Positions 1,750-56,398 of a stretch of DNA of 64,000 nt are shown here, in pieces (position 1 is the first letter of the stretch; the number at the start of each line of letters is the position of its first letter). This stretch comes from a bacterium (GTDB lineage: Bacteria > Patescibacteriota > Patescibacteriia > JAACEG01). Under the pieces are notes generated by a model, which did no database searches, was not told the DNA's origin, and saw nothing but the letters and a program-made list of their open reading frames with translations. The DNA lies in assembly GCA_030641665.1 (NCBI GenBank), contig DAOWHA010000050.1, positions 2,632 through 66,631 on the forward strand, given 5' to 3'. The position numbers were made by a program, and so were the translations under genes.

Positions 1750-1872
1750 ACTTTTAAAATATTTTTATAAAATAAAATTGTTATAATTGACTAACTTAAT
1801 AAAATTTTGTAATATCTATTTATAGTTATAATACTATTATTAAATTAAATTTCAATAATAAACAAAAAATTT

Positions 1873-3264
1873 ATGAGAATAGATGAAACTATTTTTAGAA
1901 AATATGATATTCGCGGAAAATATCCGAAGGAAATTAACGAAGAAGCCGCTTATAAAATCGCCTTGAGTTTTAGTAATCTATTTCCAGATATAAAACAGGT
2001 CGCTATTGGGGGAGATATTAGAAAAAGCACTCCCAAGCTTAAAGATGCTATGATTAAAGGTCTTATTGACGGAGGCAAGAAGGTTATTGATGTTGGAATT
2101 GTAATATCCCCTGTGGTATTTTTTTCTGTCTGCCATTATAATTTTGATTGCGGAATTGTTATTACGGCGTCTCATTTAGGAGAAGGTTTTAATGGAATTA
2201 AAATAGTCTTTAAAAATGCCTATCCTACGCTGCCCGAGCATTATGACAAAATTAAAAATCTCATTATAAATAATAAATTATCTAAAACAAAAAATCAAAA
2301 AACAACAATCAAAAAAATAGATGCTGAAAAAGATTATATTAAATATATTACAAGTAAAATAAGCATAAAAAAACCGCTCAAACTTATCATAGATACCGGC
2401 AATGGAACTTCTCGCTTGCTTCCGGAAAAAATATTTAAAATACTTGGATGCGAAGCGAGCACTATATATTCAGACCCTGACGATTCATTTCCTAATCATA
2501 TTCCTGATCCGTATCATAAAGAAAATATGATGGATTTAAAAAAAGAAGTTTTAAAAAAAGGAGCGGATTTAGGAATCGGCTATGACGGCGACGGCGATCG
2601 AGCCGGCTTTATAGACAATAAAGGAAATTTAATAAATGGGGACGCCTTATTGATGGCTTTTACTAAAAATGCTTTTAAAAAAAAATTAGGACCTATCGTG
2701 GTTGATTCAAGGGCATCCTTGGCTTTAATTGAAGAAGTAGAAAAAAACAAGCAACGCATTGAATTAACAGTCGGGTATCACGCAGCCGTTCTTGATAAAA
2801 TAATTGAATTAAACGCTGTTTTTGGAGGCGAAGTCACATGCCATTTCTATTTTCCATTAGAATATTATTTAATTGACGATGCTTTGTTCGCTTCATTAAA
2901 ATTAGTTCAAATCGCTTCTGAAAAAGAAGACTTCTCGGATTATATGAATTCTTTGCCGAGATATTGCGCTAGCGAAGAAATTTTTATAGAATTCCCTGAC
3001 ACAAAAAAATATTTGGCTGTTGATAATTTTACTAAAATGGTAAAAGAAAAAAATCTTGATATCAATGATGTTGACGGCGCTAGAATAAATTTTAAAAACG
3101 GCTGGGGAATTGTCCGTCCGTCAAATACTTCTGCTTTTATAAAAGTTAAATTTGAAGGAAAAACAGATAAGGATTTATTAGATATAACTCGCAAAATAGT
3201 AGGTTTAATGGATGAGTCTGGAATTATAATGCCTGAAAGCAAAAGAAAGAAAATCGGCTTATAA
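1873..3264 (+). CDS. Phosphoglucomutase/phosphomannomutase family protein
   Basis: TASHLGEGFNGIK (active-site Ser loop) and GYDGDGDRAGFID (metal-binding DGDGDR) motifs. 463 aa, typical size for the family. Confidence 0.85.
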   Translation: MRIDETIFRKYDIRGKYPKEINEEAAYKIALSFSNLFPDIKQVAIGGDIRKSTPKLKDAMIKGLIDGGKKVIDVGIVISPVVFFSVCHYNFDCGIVITASHLGEGFNGIKIVFKNAYPTLPEHYDKIKNLIINNKLSKTKNQKTTIKKIDAEKDYIKYITSKISIKKPLKLIIDTGNGTSRLLPEKIFKILGCEASTIYSDPDDSFPNHIPDPYHKENMMDLKKEVLKKGADLGIGYDGDGDRAGFIDNKGNLINGDALLMAFTKNAFKKKLGPIVVDSRASLALIEEVEKNKQRIELTVGYHAAVLDKIIELNAVFGGEVTCHFYFPLEYYLIDDALFASLKLVQIASEKEDFSDYMNSLPRYCASEEIFIEFPDTKKYLAVDNFTKMVKEKNLDINDVDGARINFKNGWGIVRPSNTSAFIKVKFEGKTDKDLLDITRKIVGLMDESGIIMPESKRKKIGL

Positions 3265-3286
3265 AAAATTTTTATATTTTAAAAAT

Positions 3287-28561: not shown

Positions 28562-30067
28562 CTAAAATAAATCAAAATCAACAAGACCTTCATTTAAACT
28601 TTTCCAAAAACCTTTCTTTTTTTCTTTAATTTCTGATTGCACTTTAATATTGATAGTATTAGATATTTTTTGATGTTTCTTGTTATTTCTCTCTATGCCC
28701 ACCATCATAGAATATCCAGGAAATTTTTCATCGTCCCAGTCAGTCTGCCATTTTCCATTTTTCCAAACCCAATTATTCAAATTATTATCAACGAAAGACC
28801 ATGATGTATCTTTTTTTGGATTTACTCTATCAGGTATATTTTCAAACAATTTTAGTATTTTATCAGGTTTGAAAATTGGGCAAATTCTTAACTGCTGAAA
28901 TTGACGATCTATCTCTTTTTTTATTTTATCTTTATTAAAAATCCACTCACCGCTTTGGGTGTTAATATATCCATATTCTCGCCAAGAATTTTGTTTAAAC
29001 TCATTAAAGTAAAAATTTTTACATCCAAATTTGTTTATGTTACCGTCCCATTCGTTTGTGCGACAATAATCTAAAGATTTACCTGTTTTGACTTTTTCTT
29101 TATAACACCACAAACCATTACGAAGCATAGTTGAGCGTATAGGCTTTCCGTCTATCTCTATATTTTGTGTTTTCCAACCACTTGTATAGTCAAGCATGGT
29201 GTATAAATTTTCTATATTCTCAATATCAAAATAAGCGGAGTAAATAGTGTCACCTTTTTCTTCTATTTTTTCAAATGTTTTCTGTTTTTCTATAAAAATT
29301 ATTGCTTTCTCTCTTTTTTTTGAAGTAGATTTACCGAATGATATTTTGATTTTTCTTTTACCTTTTTCATTTCTATTTTTCTCATTTTTATTGACTGAAA
29401 ATATTTCAACATCAATATTAAGTTCATCGGACAAAAAAGAGTGCCATTCCATTTGTTTGGTTGAAATTTTGTCTTTTTCGCTCTTTACTTCTGCAAAAAA
29501 ATATTTATCTTTTGAATAAACAAATAAGTCTGGAAGTCCTGATCTATTATAACTAAAATTTTTGAATAATCTTTCTATGATGCTTAATAATTTATCCTTT
29601 TCCATTACATCAACAGCAATACACAACTGATCTATTGAAAATTTATCCCAGTTTTCAATAGGTCTACAATATTTTTTAAAATTATTTTTATATGAATTAA
29701 CTAAAACTTCTTTTATATCAATATTTACAAGTTCTTTTAATTTATTTTTTAATAGGCTTTTTCTTGTTGAATAAAAATTATCAGAAAAAAAATCTCTAGG
29801 CATGTCCTGATATTCGTTAGGAAAATTTTCGCCAAACTCTGGACTCCAAACACCGTCAATTTTAGCAAATATAATATCCCAAAATAATAAAGCATATATT
29901 TCCCACCAATAACTATTTTCTGTCCAAATAGAAAAAAGACTTTCTTTTTCATAAATTTTTCGAGCAAATTCTTCAACAAAAAAATAGTCATTGTCTAATA
30001 AATACTTAATCTTTTTACCAGATGAAAAATTTTGCTTTTCAGCTTGTATATTTTTTTCAGAAATCAT
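28562..30067 (-). CDS. VRR-NUC-domain nuclease-like protein (hypothetical), in a low-GC islet
   Basis: GLPDLFVYSKDKYFFAEVKSEKDKISTKQMEWHSFL fits the VRR-NUC D...EVK...Q motif. Long Trp-rich C-terminal tail. Confidence 0.45.
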   Translation of the reverse strand: MISEKNIQAEKQNFSSGKKIKYLLDNDYFFVEEFARKIYEKESLFSIWTENSYWWEIYALLFWDIIFAKIDGVWSPEFGENFPNEYQDMPRDFFSDNFYSTRKSLLKNKLKELVNIDIKEVLVNSYKNNFKKYCRPIENWDKFSIDQLCIAVDVMEKDKLLSIIERLFKNFSYNRSGLPDLFVYSKDKYFFAEVKSEKDKISTKQMEWHSFLSDELNIDVEIFSVNKNEKNRNEKGKRKIKISFGKSTSKKREKAIIFIEKQKTFEKIEEKGDTIYSAYFDIENIENLYTMLDYTSGWKTQNIEIDGKPIRSTMLRNGLWCYKEKVKTGKSLDYCRTNEWDGNINKFGCKNFYFNEFKQNSWREYGYINTQSGEWIFNKDKIKKEIDRQFQQLRICPIFKPDKILKLFENIPDRVNPKKDTSWSFVDNNLNNWVWKNGKWQTDWDDEKFPGYSMMVGIERNNKKHQKISNTINIKVQSEIKEKKKGFWKSLNEGLVDFDLF

Positions 30068-30099
30068 GAAATGATCTTATTTAACTTATATTTCAAATT

Positions 30100-30855
30100 T
30101 TATAAATTATTATAAGCCTCAACCTGATTATTATATTCGTATTTAATCATTTCGTAATCATCACCCCATTTTTGTTTTGCATTAGTCATAATGTTTGGAT
30201 ATTCAGTTTGAGATATTATCCATTCATAGGCTCCAGCTTGATTGTTGTATTCATACTTCACCATTTCAAAATCATTATTCCATTTGGTTTTAGCTTTTGC
30301 CATAATATCTGGATATCTTGTTTGTGCTACAACCCAGTCGTATACTTGAACTTGATTATTATATTCATATTGAACCATTTCATAATCGGTACCCCATTTT
30401 GAAGAAGCGTTTGCTTTTAGAATTGTAAGGATATTTTCCCTATTAGTTTTTTGGGTTGGCGCAGGTGTCTCAGGTGCTGGCTCTTTTTTTGGAGGAGCAG
30501 TTGCTATTTCTGTAGATATGGTTTCTTCTTTTTGGGTCTTGGGCTTTTCGATAATTTCATTTTTATTTGTTGTTTGCTCCTTCTCTTGTTCGTCATCAAT
30601 TTTTACTGTTTGATTATCCGCCTCAATATTTTCAGAAATTTTATTTTCTTGCGCAACTTGTGGTGTTTGTGTGGTTGGTTCTGTCGTAATTCCAAATAAA
30701 ATAAAAAATACTAAGGCAAAGATTCCAAAAATCATTACTGTAACTTTTCGTGTTGCTCGCTCTTTTAGAAAGCGAATAAAAATGTCTGGTTTAATCAAGC
30801 CAACAATCAATGCAATGATTGAGGTTAAAAATAAAAGTAAAAATAAATTGTCCAT
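30100..30855 (-). CDS. Membrane-anchored protein with three tandem ~36-aa KWGxDYEMVxYEYNNQ repeats (hypothetical)
   Basis: N-terminal two TM, Pro/Thr/Glu-rich linker, then KWGTDYEMVQYEYNNQVQVYDWVVAQTRYPDIM / KWNNDFEMVKYEYNNQAGAYEWIISQTEYPNIM / KWGDDYEMIKYEYNNQ. Confidence 0.5.
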   Translation of the reverse strand: MDNLFLLLFLTSIIALIVGLIKPDIFIRFLKERATRKVTVMIFGIFALVFFILFGITTEPTTQTPQVAQENKISENIEADNQTVKIDDEQEKEQTTNKNEIIEKPKTQKEETISTEIATAPPKKEPAPETPAPTQKTNRENILTILKANASSKWGTDYEMVQYEYNNQVQVYDWVVAQTRYPDIMAKAKTKWNNDFEMVKYEYNNQAGAYEWIISQTEYPNIMTNAKQKWGDDYEMIKYEYNNQVEAYNNL

Positions 30856-30950
30856 AGTATTGTTATTAAAAAATTATTTATAAACAAAAAATTAATTTTT
30901 TCTTAGCGCTAAATTCGTCTTCCGTAATAATTCCTTTTTATAAAATGAAT

Positions 30951-31038
30951 GCGGAGAGGGATGGATTCGCCCTGTCATCCGACAGGGCGCCCCGATGGAT
31001 ATCGGGGCGAACCATTAAGCTAGTTGCCCAACTAACAC
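30951..31038 (-). pseudogene. 3' fragment of a tRNA-Ser-like gene with a 40-nt double-hairpin insert in the T-loop (fragment A)
   Basis: gcggagagggatggattcg[ccctgtcatccgacagggcg ccccgatggatatcggggcg]aaccattaagctagttgcccaactaacac. Variable arm + T arm + acceptor 3' only. Confidence 0.7.
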
Positions 31039-31058
31039 AATATCAAATTTATTAAATG

Positions 31059-31145
31059 CGGAGAGGGAGGGATTCGAACCCTCGAGCCAGTTGCCCAGCT
31101 AACACCTTAGCAGGGTGCCCCTTTCAACCACTCAGGCACCTCTCC
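31059..31145 (-). tRNA. tRNA-Ser(GCU): tRNA-Ser (anticodon GCU), type II, intact
   Basis: Sense GGAGAGGTGCCTGAGTGGTTGAAAGGGGCACCCTGCTAAGGTGTTAGCTGGGCAACTGGCTCGAGGGTTCGAATCCCTCCCTCTCCG. Anticodon loop CTGCTAA. No CCA encoded. Confidence 0.85.
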
Positions 31146-31151
31146 GTTTTT

Positions 31152-31412
31152 TTATTTTCCCAACTTAATAAACAATTCTTTGATTTGTTGTTTTAAAAAA
31201 TATTTTCCTTCTGTTGTTTTTAAATATTTTTCTCTTCTTTCGGCATCCTTTTTTAATAAATACGCTTCATAATGAACTAATTTAATCGGCAGCCGCCTAT
31301 TTGTTGATTTGACTTTACCTGATTTGTGCTCAATAATTCTGCGTTTTAAATTGCTCGTAAATCCAGTATACAATTGGTTGTTATTTAATAATAAAATATA
31401 AACATAATACAT
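31152..31412 (-). CDS. GIY-YIG nuclease-domain small protein (UPF0213/YhbQ-like)
   Basis: YYVYILLLNNNQLYTGFTSNLKRRIIEH, a GIY-YIG signature. Sits between the intact tRNA-Ser and a truncated copy. Confidence 0.65.
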   Translation of the reverse strand: MYYVYILLLNNNQLYTGFTSNLKRRIIEHKSGKVKSTNRRLPIKLVHYEAYLLKKDAERREKYLKTTEGKYFLKQQIKELFIKLGK

Positions 31413-31437
31413 AAACTCTTAACCATTGACTTATTAA

Positions 31438-31541
31438 GCGGAGAGGGAGGGATTCGCCCCGATATCCATCGGGGCGCCACGGCGGATGCCGTGGCGAACC
31501 CTCGAGCCAGTTGCCCTGCTAACACCTTAGCAGGGTGCCCC
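31438..31541 (-). pseudogene. 3' fragment of a tRNA-Ser(GCU)-like gene with 40-nt T-loop insert (fragment B)
   Basis: gcggagagggagggattcg[ccccgatatccatcggggcg ccacggcggatgccgtggcg]aaccctcgagccagttgccctgctaacaccttagcagggtgcccc. Lacks D arm and 5' acceptor. Confidence 0.7.
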
Positions 31542-31598
31542 TTTTTTAACCCCGTCGGAAATCCGATATCGAAATCCGAATTCCGAAATAGAAATAGC

Positions 31599-31684
31599 GG
31601 AGAGATAGGGATTCGAACCCTAGGAACCCGTGAAGGCTCAACGGTTTTCAAGACCGTCCCATTCAACCGCTCTGGCATCTCTCC
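31599..31684 (-). tRNA. tRNA-Ser(UGA): tRNA-Ser (anticodon UGA), type II, intact
   Basis: Sense GGAGAGATGCCAGAGCGGTTGAATGGGACGGTCTTGAAAACCGTTGAGCCTTCACGGGTTCCTAGGGTTCGAATCCCTATCTCTCCG. Anticodon loop CTTGAAA. Confidence 0.85.
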
Positions 31685-31727
31685 AATATATTTAATTGTG
31701 TATAAAAATAAATTTGCCCGTTAACTT

Positions 31728-31843
31728 GGATTCGCCCCGATATCCATCGGGGCGCCACGGCGGATGCCGTGGCGAACCCCCGGAACCCTTGCGGGTTCTC
31801 CGGTTTTCAAGACCGGCGCATTAGACCGCTCTGCCACGCTTCC
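31728..31843 (-). pseudogene. 5' fragment of a divergent tRNA-Ser(UGA)-like gene with 40-nt T-loop insert, 3' acceptor strand missing (fragment D)
   Basis: Sense GGAAGCGTGGCAGAGCGGTCTAATGCGCCGGTCTTGAAAACCGGAGAACCCGCAAGGGTTCCGGGGGTT[insert]CGAATCC, then unrelated sequence. Confidence 0.65.
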
Positions 31844-32089
31844 ATATTTTTTAGATTTTTCCGCCCAAGGCGGACCAGCCTATGGCTGACAACCGCTATG
31901 CGACATCTCCGTTTCGGATTTCAAATATCAGATATTTTTAAAAAATAATCCGAAATCCGAGTTCCGATATCTGATATCTGACATCCGATATCTTTGACAA
32001 TAAAACGATGATAATCTATAATAAAATAAATATTAAAAAATATTCAAGATTATTAGTAATAATAGAATAATTTTTGTTTTTGTCAATTT

Positions 32090-32590
32090 ATGGCTAAAGA
32101 AAAGATTAAAAATATATACGGTAAAATTATCAAAAGCTGGACATTCCCCGAGTATATAAAATACGACCGCAGCCGAAGATGGTATATTATAGTTTCTATA
32201 ATTTTTATATCACTGATTTTTTATAACTTTAAAACAGATAATTTTTTATTTATCATTATTTTAGTCATGCTTGCTTTAATTATTGTTGAATCGCGCAGAA
32301 AAAAACCGATGGAAGTAAAATTCAGCATTACTGAAAATGGAATTATGCTTAACGACGCTTTTTACGATTACAATAAAAATTTAAACAAATTTTGGATTGT
32401 TTACGATCCGCCAGAAGTTAAAAAAATATATTTTGAATTCAAAAATATGCTGCGCACGCATTTGGTTATTCCGATTACCGACCAATCACCGCTAGACTTA
32501 AGGGATATTTTATTAGAATACTTAGATGAAGATCTTGAAAAAGAAGGGGAATCAACAGCAGAAGCGCTTGGAAGACTATTAAAATTATAA
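32090..32590 (+). CDS. Hypothetical membrane protein
   Basis: 166 aa, two TM near the N-terminus (YIIVSIIFISLIFYNF; FLFIIILVMLALIIV). No motif. Confidence 0.45.
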   Translation: MAKEKIKNIYGKIIKSWTFPEYIKYDRSRRWYIIVSIIFISLIFYNFKTDNFLFIIILVMLALIIVESRRKKPMEVKFSITENGIMLNDAFYDYNKNLNKFWIVYDPPEVKKIYFEFKNMLRTHLVIPITDQSPLDLRDILLEYLDEDLEKEGESTAEALGRLLKL

Positions 32591-32893
32591 TTAAATTTTA
32601 ACACTTTTTAAAATTTTATTCGCGAGATAAATTTATGATAAATTTTACAAAAAATAAATTCAAAATTCAAAATCATAAATACAAAATAAATTACAATAAC
32701 CAAAATCATAAATACAAAATAATTTAAAATTTCAAATTGAAATTCTAAACCTCTTTAAAATTGTTTTGGATTTTGAAAATTATTATTTTGAATTTATTTG
32801 TAATTTTGGATTTGTGATTTTTTTGTTTATTTATTGTTAATTAAAATTAAATTCTGTTTAGAAAATGCTTAATAAAACAAACAATACTCAAAT

Positions 32894-32967
32894 GTTCCCA
32901 TAGCTCAGTTGGATAGAGCGTCAGCTTGCGGAGCTGAAGGTCAGAGGTTCAAATCCTCTTGGGGACA
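32894..32967 (+). tRNA. tRNA-Arg(GCG): tRNA-Arg (anticodon GCG)
   Basis: GTTCCCATAGCTCAGTTGGATAGAGCGTCAGCTTGCGGAGCTGAAGGTCAGAGGTTCAAATCCTCTTGGGGACA. Anticodon loop TTGCGGA. Ends 4 nt before the recG ATG. Confidence 0.85.
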
Positions 32968-32971
32968 CATT

Positions 32972-35098
32972 ATGTTAAACTTAACAACTCTGGCGGATGA
33001 AATTTCGCCGATAACGCGGAAGCTGTCAACTAAATTAAAAAGGTTAAAAATTGAGATTGTTGAAGATCTCATTTTTTATTATCCGTTCAGGTATGACGAT
33101 TTCAGCAGCGTAAAAAAAATCGCTGATCTAAACTGCGGAGATATTGTTACGATTAAAGGACGGGTTGATCTGATTGAAAACAGAAGAAGCCCGTTTCAAA
33201 AAAAAAATATTACGCAGGCGATAATAAGCGACGAAACAGGATCCATAAACGCAATCTGGTTTAACCAGCCGTATATAATAAAAAGCATAAGAACAGGTGA
33301 AAATATCTATCTTGCCGGAAAAATTGATTTGGACCATGACAATCCGCAGATGAAAAATCCTGAATATGAAAAAATAAATTATTCAACTATCGCCGGGCGG
33401 CTGGCCCCTGTCTATCATCTCACAGCGGGAATTACCAATAAGCAGATCAGATTTATGATTAAACTTTCACTGCCAGCAATTAAAAGCATAAAAGACTGGC
33501 TGCCGACAAAAATCCAAAATAGAACCAAGCTGATACCTTTAAATATCGCTTTAACTAATATCCATTTTCCGCAAGATAAAAACGCTCTTAATCAAGCCGC
33601 GCGGCGATTGAAATTTGACGAACTGTTTTTAATCCAGATGAAAAATTTAATAGCTAAAAATCGGCTGAAAAAAAACAGCGCGGAAATAATTAATTTTAAA
33701 GAAGCGGAAATTAAAAAATTTGTCGCAAACCTGCCGTTCAAATTAACCGATGATCAAAAAAAATCCTCGTGGACGATTTTAAAAGATCTGCAAAAACCGC
33801 ATCCGATGAATCGCCTTTTAGAAGGCGATGTAGGATGCGGCAAAACAGTCGTTGCCGCCATAGCTATGCTTAACACGGCTCTGAATAATAAACAATCCGT
33901 TTATATGGCTCCAACAGAAATTTTGGCAAAACAGCATTTTGTCTCCATTTCTGAATTGTTAAAAAAATTTAATATTAAAATCGGGCTAATTACAAGAAGC
34001 GAGAGGAAAACGAATTATGAATTAAAAATCAAGAATCAAAAATTAAATAAAAAGAAATCTAATGCTTATAATTCTAAGTCTATAATTCAAAATTCTGATA
34101 TTGTAATCGGCACGCACGCGCTGATACAAAATAAAATTAAATTTAAAAATCTAGTTCTAACAATCATAGACGAACAGCACCGTTTCGGGGTAGACCAAAG
34201 AAAAGCGCTCGCGGAAAAATTAAAATGTAATAAAAAAAATCCGACATCCGACATCCGACATCCGACATCCGAAATGCCCCATTTTCTGTCAATGACAGCT
34301 ACGCCGATCCCGAGAACCTTGCATTTAGCGCTTGATGGCGATTTGGATTTGAGCGTTATTAAAGAGATGCCGAAAAACAGAAAAAAAGTTTTGACAAAAA
34401 TCGTTGAAAATAATAAAAGGCAAAAAGCTTATGAATTTATCCAAAAACAGATAGGGGATGGGAGACAAATATTCGTAATCTGCCCTCTAATTGATCCAAG
34501 CGATAAATTAGGGGTGAAATCCGTGAGCGAGGAATATGAAAAATTAAACAAAAAAATTTTCCCGGATATTAAAATAGAAATTTTGCATGGCAAACTAAAG
34601 GCGGAAAAAAAAGAAAAAATAATGCAAAATTTTTTAAACAACAAAACAAAAGTTTTAGTGGCAACTTCTGTTGTGGAAGTCGGCGTTGATATCCCCAATG
34701 CAACTATTATAATGATAGAAGGTGCGGAGCGGTTCGGGTTGGCGCAACTGCACCAATTCCGCGGACGGGTCGGACGGAGCGCGTTTCAGTCTTACTGTTT
34801 TTTATTCAGCGATAATTTAACGGCTAAAGCCAGTAATAGATTGGAGGCGTTAGTTGATTGTAATGATGGATTTGAACTTGCGCGCCGAGATTTGGAATTC
34901 AGGGGCGCCGGCGATATTTACGGACAGGAGCAGTCAGGGCTCCCTAAATTAAAAATCGCCACGCTTTTCGACTATGAACTTATGCAAAAAGTTAGAGACG
35001 AGGCAGAGCAAATTTTAACAATGAATTCAGAATTAGAAAAATTTCCTGAACTGAAAAACCGAATGAAAGAATTTGAAAAATCAATTCATTTGGAATAA
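32972..35098 (+). CDS. recG: ATP-dependent DNA helicase RecG
   Basis: Wedge/OB N-domain, Walker A GDVGCGKTVVAA, DEQH box IIDEQHRFG, helicase C QLHQFRGRVGR. In-frame PTSDIRHPTSEM from (ccgacat)n at 34239-34273. Start is ATG 32972; the ORF-track start 32909 overlaps the tRNA. Confidence 0.9.
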   Translation: MLNLTTLADEISPITRKLSTKLKRLKIEIVEDLIFYYPFRYDDFSSVKKIADLNCGDIVTIKGRVDLIENRRSPFQKKNITQAIISDETGSINAIWFNQPYIIKSIRTGENIYLAGKIDLDHDNPQMKNPEYEKINYSTIAGRLAPVYHLTAGITNKQIRFMIKLSLPAIKSIKDWLPTKIQNRTKLIPLNIALTNIHFPQDKNALNQAARRLKFDELFLIQMKNLIAKNRLKKNSAEIINFKEAEIKKFVANLPFKLTDDQKKSSWTILKDLQKPHPMNRLLEGDVGCGKTVVAAIAMLNTALNNKQSVYMAPTEILAKQHFVSISELLKKFNIKIGLITRSERKTNYELKIKNQKLNKKKSNAYNSKSIIQNSDIVIGTHALIQNKIKFKNLVLTIIDEQHRFGVDQRKALAEKLKCNKKNPTSDIRHPTSEMPHFLSMTATPIPRTLHLALDGDLDLSVIKEMPKNRKKVLTKIVENNKRQKAYEFIQKQIGDGRQIFVICPLIDPSDKLGVKSVSEEYEKLNKKIFPDIKIEILHGKLKAEKKEKIMQNFLNNKTKVLVATSVVEVGVDIPNATIIMIEGAERFGLAQLHQFRGRVGRSAFQSYCFLFSDNLTAKASNRLEALVDCNDGFELARRDLEFRGAGDIYGQEQSGLPKLKIATLFDYELMQKVRDEAEQILTMNSELEKFPELKNRMKEFEKSIHLE

Positions 35099-35217: not shown

Positions 35218-35880
35218 TTATTCTTTCTTTAATTTATTTAAATTTTCAACAAGCAGATAAACCGTTGTTGAGGGATTCTTTTTTGAAAATGATTTTTCGT
35301 TTTTATGCATATTTAACAGTTTTTTAGCATTTCTAATTGCATCTTTTTCAGTATCCTTTAGTAAAAGGTACATATCTTTTGATATTTTACTATATCTTAT
35401 TTTAGAGTTGCCTGTAAGTTTTTTTAGATTATCCGTTAATTTTAATATATAATCTTTCCTGCTAATAGCCGAACTAAGCGGAATAAAATGCAACAAAAAC
35501 CATATTTCAAAACATTCATTTGAATAAGCTACTTCTAAATTATTTACCCCTGCCTTAATTATCGCATTATCAAAATGCTGATCAAAATTATCTTTATCAA
35601 AAACAACCCAGCACTCATCGCTATTTTCCGAATTATCAATTTTAATATTTCTTTCTTTTATAAATTCTATCGCAAAATTTACAAGTTTTAAAGTATTATA
35701 TCCAGTACCTGCAATTTTTATCTTAATATTTTGTCTTCTAATTTCTGTTTCAATTTCTTTCTTTTTTGATTCAAAATAATTTACTTCAGTTTTTTCTCCT
35801 TCTGTAAAAATATAAATAAATTTATACTGTTTTCGTGTATCGTATTTTCTATTTAATTTACATTCTAACTTTTTGCTCAT
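35218..35880 (-). CDS. RloB-family (TOPRIM/OLD-like) protein; AbiLii/AriB-like partner of the upstream ATPase
   Basis: FIYIFTEGEKTEVNYF is the hallmark RloB N-terminal motif. Start placed at ATG 35880, 10 nt after the ATPase stop. Confidence 0.7.
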   Translation of the reverse strand: MSKKLECKLNRKYDTRKQYKFIYIFTEGEKTEVNYFESKKKEIETEIRRQNIKIKIAGTGYNTLKLVNFAIEFIKERNIKIDNSENSDECWVVFDKDNFDQHFDNAIIKAGVNNLEVAYSNECFEIWFLLHFIPLSSAISRKDYILKLTDNLKKLTGNSKIRYSKISKDMYLLLKDTEKDAIRNAKKLLNMHKNEKSFSKKNPSTTVYLLVENLNKLKKE

Positions 35881-35890
35881 ATTTTTTAAA

Positions 35891-37120
35891 TTATACAGAA
35901 TCAATAAATGGCAATGCTCCGAATCTGCCCTTAAGGTATTTTTTAGAAAATTCAGTATCATTTCTTAAATCAGAATCAAACTCAGCTAAAGAAAACAGAT
36001 CGCCTGCCCCAAACTTATTTTTTTCCGTAAACCAAAATTGTTCTTTGATAAAATCATCCTTATATGAAAGCAGACTTGTATCATGAGTAGTAACTATCAA
36101 TTGAGCATTATTCGGATTATTTTTTTCAAACAAATCAATAATAAATTTAGTTAAAAGCGGATGAACACTATTATCGAATTCATCAATAAATAAAACTTTG
36201 CCGTTTTCAAGCGTGTCGGCTATAGGTCCAATTACATCAAAAAATTTTTGCGTTCCTTCGGACTCATTACCTAAATTAAATTTTTCAACTCCATTTTTTT
36301 TATCTTTTGAATTAAATTTACTGTGTAAAAAAAATACAGTGTCCATCGTGTTTGGAATTTTTTTTTCGTTCATAAACATCATTTGTTTTCTTATATGTTC
36401 GGGTAATGGTATTTTTCTAACTTCTATATCAATAATAGAAAAATCGGCTTTTTGCAAAAAATTTAAAACTTTATTTTTTTTATTTGAGTTGTCCCTAATC
36501 AATTTTAATGTATACCCCCTATATTCACCATTATTAAAACCGCTAATAATATTAATATTTTTAAATCCATCTACAATTTTCATAGCAAGTTCATTATTCC
36601 ATTGAGAAACTGCAGACAAAAATAATATTTCTTTTCTAGTTTTCACTTTAGCAATATCTTCACTTCCTTTAAAATCATTAAATAATTGAAATGATTGTTC
36701 TTTTCTAATTAAACATTTTTTTTCTTCTCCAGTAGATAAAATTTCTAATAAATTTTCTGTAATAATTTTATCTTTTAAAATAGAAAAATTATATTTAAAA
36801 ATTTGGTTATCTAAAGAAAAAATAATTTCAAAAAAGGATGGTTGATTATTATCATCTGAAAGTAAAAATGGGTAATATGGCAAGCTTGAATCTTCGGAAT
36901 TTTTTAATGAGTAAATTATTCCTTCTCTTAATAAATCGAAAGCATTAAGCAATGTGCTTTTACCAGAGGAATTTGGACCATATATTAAAGAAATTTTTAA
37001 TAAGTTTCGTTTATTTTTTTCAAAAGTATGCTCGCTTTTTCTTGCCAACATAGAAAAAGTTGTCTTTTCTTTAAAAATTTTAAAATTTTTTACTGAAAAT
37101 TCAATAATTGATATTGACAT
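35891..37120 (-). CDS. AAA_21/AAA_15-type ATPase (RloA/AbiLi/AriA-like abortive-infection ATPase)
   Basis: Walker A GPNSSGKSTLLNAF near the N-terminus, distal Walker B VLFIDEFDNSVHP and IVTTHD, the split ABC-like AAA_21 architecture. Confidence 0.75.
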   Translation of the reverse strand: MSISIIEFSVKNFKIFKEKTTFSMLARKSEHTFEKNKRNLLKISLIYGPNSSGKSTLLNAFDLLREGIIYSLKNSEDSSLPYYPFLLSDDNNQPSFFEIIFSLDNQIFKYNFSILKDKIITENLLEILSTGEEKKCLIRKEQSFQLFNDFKGSEDIAKVKTRKEILFLSAVSQWNNELAMKIVDGFKNINIISGFNNGEYRGYTLKLIRDNSNKKNKVLNFLQKADFSIIDIEVRKIPLPEHIRKQMMFMNEKKIPNTMDTVFFLHSKFNSKDKKNGVEKFNLGNESEGTQKFFDVIGPIADTLENGKVLFIDEFDNSVHPLLTKFIIDLFEKNNPNNAQLIVTTHDTSLLSYKDDFIKEQFWFTEKNKFGAGDLFSLAEFDSDLRNDTEFSKKYLKGRFGALPFIDSV

Positions 37121-56194: not shown

Positions 56195-56398
56195 CTATTT
56201 TTCTCTTAAAATCGCTTCTTCTATTTTATCAAAAACTTCATAGTAAACTAATTTGTCAACATTATATTTTTTAGTAAATCCTTTAATTGTTTTATTTTTA
56301 TGCTCTTTAATTCTTCTATTTAAATCATTAGTTACACCCGTATAAATAACTGTATTATTTTGATTGCAGAGTATGTATATAAAATATTGCTTTTGCAT
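56195..56398 (-). CDS. GIY-YIG nuclease-domain small protein (second paralogue)
   Basis: QYFIYILCNQNNTVIYTGVTNDLNRRIKEHKN. Flanked by repeat copy 11 and half-copy 12. Its start codon lies inside the half-copy. Confidence 0.6.
   Translation of the reverse strand: MQKQYFIYILCNQNNTVIYTGVTNDLNRRIKEHKNKTIKGFTKKYNVDKLVYYEVFDKIEEAILREK

Follow-up and report, generated by a model that had tools for sequence, protein, structure and literature searches.

The 64,000-nucleotide stretch of DNA analysed here, called the window in the following, belongs to a bacterium of the Patescibacteriota (contig DAOWHA010000050.1 of assembly GCA_030641665.1, positions 2,632 to 66,631) and contains a hotspot of transfer RNA (tRNA) gene fragments. 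The window has a GC content of 36%, and the hotspot region is AT-rich. Two intact genes, for tRNA-Ser(GCU) and tRNA-Ser(UGA), are accompanied by three partial tRNA-Ser copies (A, B, and D), a fourth fragment (E), and a small open reading frame (ORF) for a GIY-YIG nuclease of 86 amino acids (aa). All tRNA features are on the minus strand, and in the sense of the tRNAs the order is E, D, the intact UGA gene, B, the 86-aa ORF, the intact GCU gene, and A (Table 1). In a preliminary description, which was made from the sequence and a list of ORFs, it had been stated that A, B, and D each carry an insert of 40 nt in the T-loop, and that the two intact genes lack it. It was verified that this is the case; the insert is exactly 40 nt long in all three fragments and separates C56 from G57 of the T-loop, i.e., TTC from GAA. 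The nuclease gene, which is located between fragment B and tRNA-Ser(GCU), had been missed in that description, and it turned out to be the key to the locus.

Fragment B is situated 25 nt upstream of the nuclease start codon and is identical to the resident GCU gene at 66 of 67 positions (63/64 by local alignment), and the stop codon of the ORF is 6 nt before position 1 of that gene. Fragment A follows 20 nt downstream of the intact tRNA-Ser(GCU), shares 42 of 48 nt with it, and has no nuclease gene of its own. Fragment D lies 43 nt upstream of the intact UGA gene and ends 6 nt past its insert; a nuclease gene is absent here, too. The Rfam tRNA model scored fragment D just over threshold (30.4 bits) and treated the 40 nt as an insertion. 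Fragment E, a member of repeat family D8, is 76% identical to the 5′ end of tRNA-Ser(GCU) and is followed by a hairpin with a 6-bp stem and a 3-nt loop (TCCGCC TTG GGCGGA); it was not detected by Rfam, and from its sequence it is a probable further 5′ tRNA relic. A permissive Rfam scan of positions 29500–33500 yielded tRNA matches only, and no intron, ribozyme, or small RNA family. The same sequences were found in three independent assemblies from other samples (L001–L003; related loci carry such numbers throughout). In a relative with a 98% identical nuclease (L037) decayed equivalents of D and A are present, and B is missing.

Table 1. Coordinates of the tRNA genes, tRNA fragments, double-hairpin inserts (HH), and nuclease ORF of the hotspot (window positions).
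Feature	Position	Strand	Description
Fragment A	30951..31038	-	3′ partial copy of a GCU-type tRNA-Ser, positions ~41-88, HH at 56/57
HH of fragment A	30969..31008		40 nt; covariance-model score 79.5 bits
Intact tRNA-Ser(GCU)	31058..31145	-	ARAGORN; Rfam tRNA model 58.3 bits; without insert
GIY-YIG nuclease ORF, 86 aa	31152..31412	-	ORF list; Pfam PF01541, E = 8e-15
Fragment B	31438..31544	-	GCU-type tRNA-Ser copy, positions ~22-88 (without 1-21), HH at 56/57
HH of fragment B	31456..31495		Covariance-model score 80.7 bits; same as HH of D
Intact tRNA-Ser(UGA)	31597..31684	-	ARAGORN and Rfam; without insert
Fragment D	31728..31843	-	5′ partial copy of a UGA-type tRNA-Ser, positions 1 to ~62, HH at 56/57
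HH of fragment D	31734..31773		Covariance-model score 78.7 bits
Fragment E, fourth relic	~31861..31910	-	Class II tRNA acceptor strand and D arm; low confidence

When the flanking G and C are counted, the insert consists of two abutting hairpins of 20 nt, each with an 8-bp stem and a 4-nt loop, and it is therefore called HH. The loop of the first hairpin is ATCC and that of the second is GGAT, and this order holds on either strand. In tRNA sense (minus strand) the HH of fragment A reads GCCCCGAT-ATCC-ATCGGGGC and then GCCCTGTC-GGAT-GACAGGGC. Sequence comparison bore out that the inserts of B and D are identical and that A has one hairpin in common with B/D, in reverse complement and at the other position. 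Likewise, a hairpin scan and a covariance model revealed no copy in the window beyond A, B, and D, in agreement with the preliminary description. As single-stranded DNA, the HH of fragment A was predicted to fold into a three-way junction of -19.8 kcal/mol (z -4.2), and both DNA strands of B fold into the same junction (-23.5 and -24.0 kcal/mol), the parts of which are the T-stem plus TTC/GAA, hairpin 1, and hairpin 2.

A comparison of 45 distinct HH copies revealed that the two stems are paired in 98.1% and 98.9% of the cells, that 12 of the 16 stem pairs change on both sides, and that G.U occupies only 3 of 720 cells, although the copies had been pre-selected at no more than one mismatch per stem, which inflates the pairing and under-counts G.U. 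In slid controls, 31–48% of the cells were paired. Related loci of 609 kb in total contained 161 hairpins of the HH family, compared with 0–1 in shuffled sequences, and a chance origin of the hairpins is excluded. The near absence of wobble pairs together with the strand-symmetric loops points to a structure that is relevant at the level of DNA rather than RNA.

The distribution of the HH was determined by scanning one genome per species (185,579 species) with the pattern TTCG-N7-ATCC-N7-CG-N7-GGAT-N7-CGAA, which fixes the loops and flanks and leaves the stems free. This resulted in 44 loci. Thirty of them had complementary bases at 6–7 of 7 positions in both hairpins, and the remaining 14 non-complementary loci correspond to about the number expected by chance. 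The 30 true HH loci are scattered, mostly over the Patescibacteria (Falkowbacteria, Giovannonibacteria, Saccharibacteria, Parcubacteria), with a few in metagenome-assembled genomes (MAGs) of Victivallales, Bdellovibrionales, and "Gammaproteobacteria". The stem sequences vary among these loci, yet they are perfectly compensated. An intact tRNA is present within about 0.5 kb in 27 of the 30 cases. Using tblastn, a homologue of the window nuclease was found beside the HH at 13 loci, and none was neighbouring at the other 17. In one genome (MAG021) a single HH sequence occurs at several different tRNA genes. The T-loop-flanked HH pattern, with the GCC/GGC stem ends fixed and the loops free, did not match any of 2.9 million viral contigs.

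Halves of a T-loop are present on both sides in 64 of 67 HH copies, so the HH is not a generic repeat that is spread over non-tRNA sites. The nucleotides on the ORF side of the HH match the local variant of the T-loop (GAGTCCC, GATTCC, GAAGCCG), which indicates that the HH resides within a T-arm of which both sides are retained, and that this is not a junction with foreign DNA. In addition to TTC^GAA (the caret marks the HH), the HH was found in TTC^GAG, TCC^GAT, TTC^GGA, and TTC^AAA loops. Because of these other loop sequences, TTCGAA as a restriction-like target, also with a duplication of CG, was rejected, and the target appears to be the loop position and not the hexamer. Of the tiny hairpin mobile element at TTCGAA that had been proposed in the preliminary description, the conserved multi-copy family, with the same HH in different tRNA genes of MAG021, has thus remained, and the hexamer has not. 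All sites of HHs and of single family hairpins would be single-stranded if the DNA of the gene folded as a cloverleaf.

Several variants of the family were observed. One subfamily has 5-nt loops (ATAAA/TTTAT) with the same strand symmetry, and its hairpin pair is located in the anticodon loop of a partial copy, e.g., in the TTC^GAAA loop of tRNA-Ser(CGA). These copies again end 5–7 nt past the hairpin pair (L101 ~90-190, L068 ~1800-2000, L092/L093 ~1900-2000, L067, L084, L076, L109), and L068 has a tandem run of hairpins with 5-nt loops. Single family hairpins occur in the D-loop and around positions ~26 and ~44/45 of partial tRNA copies, and some are nested in the loop of another hairpin (L088 1425/1852, L095 154 and 193, L052 1725, L111 1010, L060 2381-2470, L129 1903-1991). 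Furthermore, there are two kinds of tandem arrays. In one, a unit composed of a tRNA 3′ piece, a spacer, GGTTC, and an HH is repeated at periods of 168, 91, or 76 nt, and in the other a unit composed of a 5′ copy, an HH, and the ORF is repeated at a period of 402–427 nt (L024 3600-4360 on the minus strand, L069 900-1260, L008 40-170, L041 5135-5850, L088 1500-2250). In Victivallales, L035 has the nuclease ORF at the place where L024 has the 168-nt repeat array.

The linkage was also approached from the nuclease, and 80 metagenome loci were fetched by homology to an alignment of the protein, without reference to the HH. In 57 of them a tRNA of the same orientation directly adjoins the ORF (downstream in 42 loci, upstream in 12, and on both sides in 3), and 15 tRNA isotypes are used. 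The stop codon is separated from tRNA position 1 by a median of about 3 nt and is even inside the tRNA in 13 loci, and 10 of 15 loci have the start codon at -1 to +4 nt relative to the 3′ end of the tRNA. The covariance model detected an HH-bearing partial tRNA copy in at least 54 of the 80 loci, and a model-free search found an adjacent hairpin pair no more than 150 nt from the ORF in 49 of 80, compared with none in shuffled sequences. Loci that escaped the HH searches carry variant pairs, with 5-nt loops or at the anticodon-loop position.

Two forms of the unit could be discriminated. In type U, a partial copy from position 1 to about 62, i.e., 5–9 nt beyond the HH, is followed by the ORF and the intact tRNA. 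In type D, the intact tRNA is followed by the ORF and a partial copy that starts at about position 52, 4–7 nt before the HH, and extends to the 3′ end. In nearly all cases the HH and the intact tRNA are on opposite sides of the ORF. The partial copies start exactly at tRNA position 1 or end 0–4 nt after the 3′ end, stop 4–9 nt past the HH, and are mostly 100% identical to the neighbouring tRNA. The distance between partial and intact copy is 20–290 nt, and only the nuclease ORF of about 260 nt or a short spacer lies between them. In the window, fragment B, the ORF, and tRNA-Ser(GCU) form a complete copy of the element, namely a type U unit the partial copy of which keeps its 3′ end. Fragments D (type U) and A (type D) are read here as relics that lost the ORF. 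Fragment B and a spacer separate tRNA-Ser(UGA) from the ORF, and both are missing from L037; a clean empty site was not found.

The partial copies that differ from their neighbours were informative with respect to their origin. The acceptor, D, anticodon, variable, and T stems of fragment D deviate from those of the resident UGA gene, and all of its visible stems still pair. It is closer to a tRNA-Ser of Giovannonibacteria (65/76) than to the resident gene (56/69), and the window does not contain a partner for its acceptor strand, GGAAGCG. In fragment A a T-stem change is compensated across the HH (AUGG/CCAU versus the GGGG-type), indicating that both sides of the HH stem from one diverged functional allele. 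L099 has a compensated change in the variable arm, and the acceptor strands of D and of L094 mismatch the 3′ strand of the adjacent tRNA. These helix-preserving differences suggest that functional alleles of other lineages gave rise to the copies; here, at least, the import would be the piece with the HH and not the intact gene. Fragment D is 19% diverged from its neighbour and nevertheless has the same HH as B, so the HH must be maintained or renewed independently of the surrounding fragment. Two simple routes were rejected. Insertion at 56/57 with re-use of the native 3′ half is contradicted for D and L094 by the mismatched acceptor strands. An RNA intermediate would fit mature-tRNA boundaries and a CCA on the ORF-side copy that is absent from the native one; this was true in L079 only and is not general, and no reverse transcriptase was seen next to the elements.

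The nuclease is composed of a single GIY-YIG domain, and its family has at least 733 members at E <= 1e-5. The members are 65–85% identical across lineages of the Candidate Phyla Radiation (CPR), and a copy with 78% identity is encoded on a Victivallales contig of 1.0 Mb. An alignment of 25 sequences revealed that Y5, Y15, R25, H29, and E61 are invariant, and that neither a conserved C-terminal Asn nor an invariant Asn after E61 is present. A profile search against solved structures matched only the UPF0213 proteins 1zg2 and 1ywl, and none of the NCBIfam models matched. With the AlphaFold model (mean confidence, pLDDT, 93.6) Foldseek retrieved 1zg2 and 1ywl, then Slx1 entries, and I-TevI at rank 17, with weak E-values past the first two. 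UPF0213 has been placed in the Slx1 lineage, which is a minimal stand-alone, structure-specific branch apart from the branch of homing endonucleases and UvrC (Dunin-Horkawicz et al., PMC1564403). The protein has the characteristics given there, i.e., a minimal domain, no auxiliary DNA-binding domain, and no conserved C-terminal Asn. By its sequence, it is a minimal nuclease of the Slx1/UPF0213-type, structure-specific lineage, and this descent suggests that it may cleave branched DNA. In a neighbour-joining tree of the protein the tRNA isotypes and the U and D forms are interspersed, and a basal clade has no tRNA neighbours.

What was found is thus a large family in which a partial tRNA duplication goes together with a structured DNA insert of 40 nt and a minimal nuclease of the Slx1 type, and the known kind of element to which it corresponds is the endonuclease-driven selfish element with host-gene duplication. 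The reading that we favour, with some reservation, is that the HH-marked tRNA fragments are probably the non-coding half of a small selfish element and the 86-aa GIY-YIG gene its coding half. The family is apparently widespread in the ultra-small CPR bacteria and undescribed. In the literature no description of a tRNA-linked GIY-YIG and hairpin system in bacteria was found; insertions in CPR rRNA genes that encode GIY-YIG proteins have been reported, without a tRNA or hairpin context (PMC11270868). The 15 tRNA isotypes, the interspersion in the tree, the Victivallales copy, and the HH that is shared by several tRNA genes of one MAG suggest by their distribution that the element is mobile. It would occupy a tRNA locus, where one working tRNA would always be left. 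The nuclease, devoid of a DNA-binding domain, might act on folded tRNA-gene DNA, i.e., on loops or stem bases, or on the three-way junction of HH and T-stem, and the resulting break would be repaired by copying from the element-bearing locus, which would be homing. The HH would destroy the loop target in the redundant copy, so that no break would occur between direct repeats and the element would not be deleted. It may also serve as the nuclease's own binding structure. The ORF is probably co-transcribed with the tRNA, and its message would be released by tRNA end-processing.

Several points weigh against this reading. Neither a filled/empty allele pair nor an excised form was found, so that mobility is read from distribution; a look-up of identical copies of one flanking protein and two nuclease homologues gave a single context shared by all places. 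Some of the non-CPR matches may be mis-binned contigs, and the protein tree is a neighbour-joining tree of 86 residues. The stem statistics are biased by the selection for few mismatches, and the unbiased evidence for pairing is the scan in which only loops and flanks were fixed. The intact tRNA of an occupied locus keeps an unprotected target loop, and simple homing does not explain how self-cleavage is dealt with. A protein of 86 aa has no obvious means of sequence recognition. Due to the acceptor mismatches of D and L094, an insertion at 56/57 that re-uses the native 3′ half does not apply to these two, and the phase of the inserted unit is ambiguous. Finally, it is not explained how a new local tRNA copy is obtained when the element switches to another tRNA species.

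Alternatively, the 20-nt hairpins themselves could be mobile, as miniature palindromes that enter single-stranded loops of tRNA genes and are retained only where a partial copy is redundant. At most, the GIY-YIG gene would then be a trans-acting helper, and the tRNA duplications would arise independently. This would fit the single hairpins in D-loops and at positions 26 and 44/45, one of them nested in the loop of another, as well as the HH fragments that have no adjoining nuclease gene at 17 of 30 genome loci or form tandem arrays, and the same HH at several tRNAs of a MAG that showed one nuclease gene among the fetched loci. A parallel is offered by AT-rich mitochondrial genomes, in which double-hairpin elements are suspected to be mobile DNA (PMC10085805, PMC2800124). 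We regard such hairpin mobility as unlikely, because it leaves unexplained why partial tRNA copies with exact tRNA-end boundaries are found beside so many tRNAs, and why the HH is consistently on the ORF side away from the intact tRNA. Solo copies are equally well understood as relics or non-autonomous derivatives, and we know of no mechanism that moves a 20-nt hairpin.

It is tempting to speculate, albeit with little confidence, that the piece composed of HH and tRNA is a targeting module rather than a scar. The Slx1-type nuclease would bind the junction. In type U some 56 nt of tRNA sequence on the 5′ side, and in type D some 20 nt on the 3′ side, would pair with the resident gene and guide cutting or integration to a site immediately next to it, and gene conversion of this stretch could switch the element to a new tRNA. 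If true, this would be a nucleic acid- or structure-guided GIY-YIG system and a new class of bacterial mobile elements, apart from recombinase, HUH, and RNA-guided TnpB/IscB systems.

It is still less probable that the HH acts at the RNA level. In this case partial copy and nuclease mRNA would be co-transcribed from the tRNA promoter, and the very stable, GC-rich hairpins would stabilise the free mRNA end or keep the truncated tRNA from a fold that is bound by tRNA enzymes. The position of the HH at the ORF end distal to the intact tRNA in nearly all cases would make sense, as tRNA processing would set the other mRNA end, and the ORF is essentially without an untranslated region beside the tRNA. 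An RNA function requires neither the near absence of G.U (3/720) nor the same structure on both strands with reverse-complementary loops, including the ATAAA/TTTAT pair. Moreover, the HH is unchanged in the relics A and D, in which no ORF remains to be stabilised.

The partial copies beside intact tRNA genes are also the classical signature of integration (PMC9897764), and the preliminary description had accordingly considered remnants of attachment (att) sites. The fragments would then be attL/attR-type scars of integrase-driven phages or islands that were repeatedly integrated and lost at tRNA-Ser genes, and at one related locus a gene for a large serine recombinase is indeed present downstream of the tRNA. 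The proposal holds by analogy only and is very improbable. Partial and intact copies are only 20–290 nt apart, with no more than the nuclease ORF or a short spacer in between. Partial copies of either end of the tRNA occur, a conserved structured insertion is not a feature of att scars, and the viral contigs were devoid of the T-loop-flanked pattern. No integrase or recombinase gene was seen beside A, B, and D in the ORF list and in a Pfam scan of the window neighbours, which are a VRR-NUC protein, a membrane protein, a DUF protein, RloB, and AAA_21; the gene called at the position of the window's 729-aa ORF is RecG.

The T-loop intron of the preliminary description, or split tRNA halves that are joined at the RNA level, would suit the insertion at one exact loop position, the acceptance of fragment D by the Rfam tRNA model, and the several kinds of disrupted tRNA genes that exist in archaea (PMC3978253), and can be dismissed as next to impossible. 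In none of the 67 HH copies do the acceptor strands of the two tRNA ends match, and thus none is in an intact functional tRNA of a relative. An intact gene for the same tRNA lies beside almost every copy, the inserts of B and D are identical and not complementary, and the acceptor partner of D is absent from the window. When the HH was removed in silico from all copies, ARAGORN made four forced calls, with non-complementary 3′ parts and an intact gene beside each. A group I intron model had no match in the hotspot region.

Among described systems, the mobile endonuclease ORFs (mORFs) of fungal mitochondria are closest to the selfish element favoured here. In Allomyces (atp6) and Glomus (atp6, atp9, cox2, nad3) an endonuclease ORF resides within or beside an essential gene and is accompanied by a duplicate of the terminus of this gene; the endonuclease in Glomus atp9 is of the GIY-YIG type, one copy can be foreign, a native remnant is left beside it, and the spread has been attributed to cleavage of ORF-less alleles (PMC3630166). 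The same arrangement is present in the window, where the endonuclease ORF is located between a displaced partial copy and the host gene (B, ORF, tRNA-Ser(GCU)), which stays functional. In contrast to the mORFs, the host gene is a tRNA gene in a bacterial chromosome, both 5′ and 3′ duplications exist, the nuclease is a minimal Slx1-type domain of 86 aa without a DNA-binding part, and the redundant copy is split by a conserved double hairpin. As the copies are usually 100% identical here, sequence divergence cannot confer immunity, unlike in the mORFs.

The HH has a counterpart in the double-hairpin elements, GC clusters, and repetitive hairpin elements of AT-rich mitochondrial genomes, which are short, GC-rich, composed of two hairpins, and multi-copy; their conservation extends across species, mobility by an unknown mechanism has been suspected, and some of them reside in RNA genes (PMC10085805, PMC2800124). 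Compared by architecture only, the HH likewise is a GC-rich two-hairpin unit with many copies that is conserved between species. It differs in being bacterial, linked to a nuclease gene, equipped with strand-symmetric loops, and placed at the apex of a loop in partial tRNA copies, not in intergenic DNA.

SegB of phage T4 has been described as a free-standing GIY-YIG homing endonuclease in a tRNA gene cluster, which cuts the tRNA-gene DNA of relatives and promotes both the inheritance and the amplification of this region (PMC2330249, PMC13096335). A GIY-YIG gene among tRNA genes is common to both systems, and SegB shows that a GIY-YIG enzyme can target tRNA-gene DNA (PMC2330249). SegB is a full-size enzyme of the homing-endonuclease lineage with a DNA-binding region, and has neither a hairpin element nor a partial tRNA copy. 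It is phage-borne, whereas the HH pattern that was scanned gave no match in viral contigs. The classical att sites in tRNA genes share the partial copies beside intact genes and the end of homology at the tRNA boundary (PMC9897764); the present loci differ by the absence of a recombinase gene between the copies, an "island" of only 20–290 nt, the occurrence of 5′ copies, and the structured insertion.

The best matches of the nuclease in both sequence and fold are Slx1 and the bacterial UPF0213 (YhbQ-like) proteins, with which it shares the minimal domain and the lack of the C-terminal Asn of the UvrC/homing-endonuclease lineage. To our knowledge, no substrate and no mobile behaviour is known for bacterial Slx1/UPF0213 members, whereas the subfamily described here occurs in multiple copies, is linked to tRNAs, and has a structured DNA site as its partner. 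In the REP/RAYT and IS200/IS605 systems short palindromic hairpins are cis sites for a small nuclease that acts on single-stranded DNA. The enzymes are HUH Y1 transposases, and the hairpins are strand-specific; here, the enzyme is a GIY-YIG nuclease and both strands form the same structure.

If the favoured reading holds, it provides a context for hundreds of Patescibacteria genes that are labelled "GIY-YIG nuclease family protein" or, wrongly, "excinuclease ABC subunit C", and it would account for tRNA pseudogene fragments of a kind that can disrupt assemblies and mislead tRNA annotation. It would mean that a selfish element can persist in the reduced CPR genomes as a parasite of tRNA loci that it does not destroy, and that the mitochondrial mORFs and double-hairpin elements have a bacterial counterpart. 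The 86-residue nuclease and the 40-nt structured DNA site form a natural pair, with which the substrate of bacterial Slx1/UPF0213 proteins becomes testable. Should the hairpin junction be the recognition element, this would be among the smallest site-directed nuclease systems known.

A few further observations were made at the hotspot and in its surroundings. The hotspot is situated between the gene for a 501-aa VRR-NUC domain protein (28562-30067, minus strand) and a gene pair for RloB and AAA_21 (an OLD-like ATPase; 35218-37120, minus strand), all of which are nuclease or defence-type genes. AT-rich repeats of 14–16 nt of the type TCGGAAATCCGATATC, some of them inverted, are present in seven copies at 31555-31590 and 31914-31992, where they flank the upstream spacer of fragment B and the region upstream of relic E; they are absent from the same place in the close relative L037. 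Several of the fetched contigs end inside the hotspot. Two that are otherwise 99–100% identical to the window begin with unrelated GC-rich sequence (L002, positions 1-346; L005, positions 1-70); these ends are probably assembly chimeras at the repeat-rich hotspot, and both contigs were left unused for population variants. In a Moranbacteria population (L130–L139, ~1818-3267, minus strand) the nuclease gene is followed, on the opposite strand, by a gene for a large serine recombinase, and a conventional integrative element may use the same site.

The window contains a second GIY-YIG ORF of 67 aa (56195-56398, minus strand), which is 42% identical to the first over 66 aa, matches a group I intron endonuclease model weakly, and has no adjoining tRNA. 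A repeat of another type, about 150 nt long, flanks this ORF and forms a long imperfect hairpin (-36 kcal/mol, z -6.2). The repeat core GCAACGGAGCGAAGCAATC was found three times in the window, compared with an expectation of 0.02, and the repeats are located at ~27168, 45120 (minus strand), and 55988.

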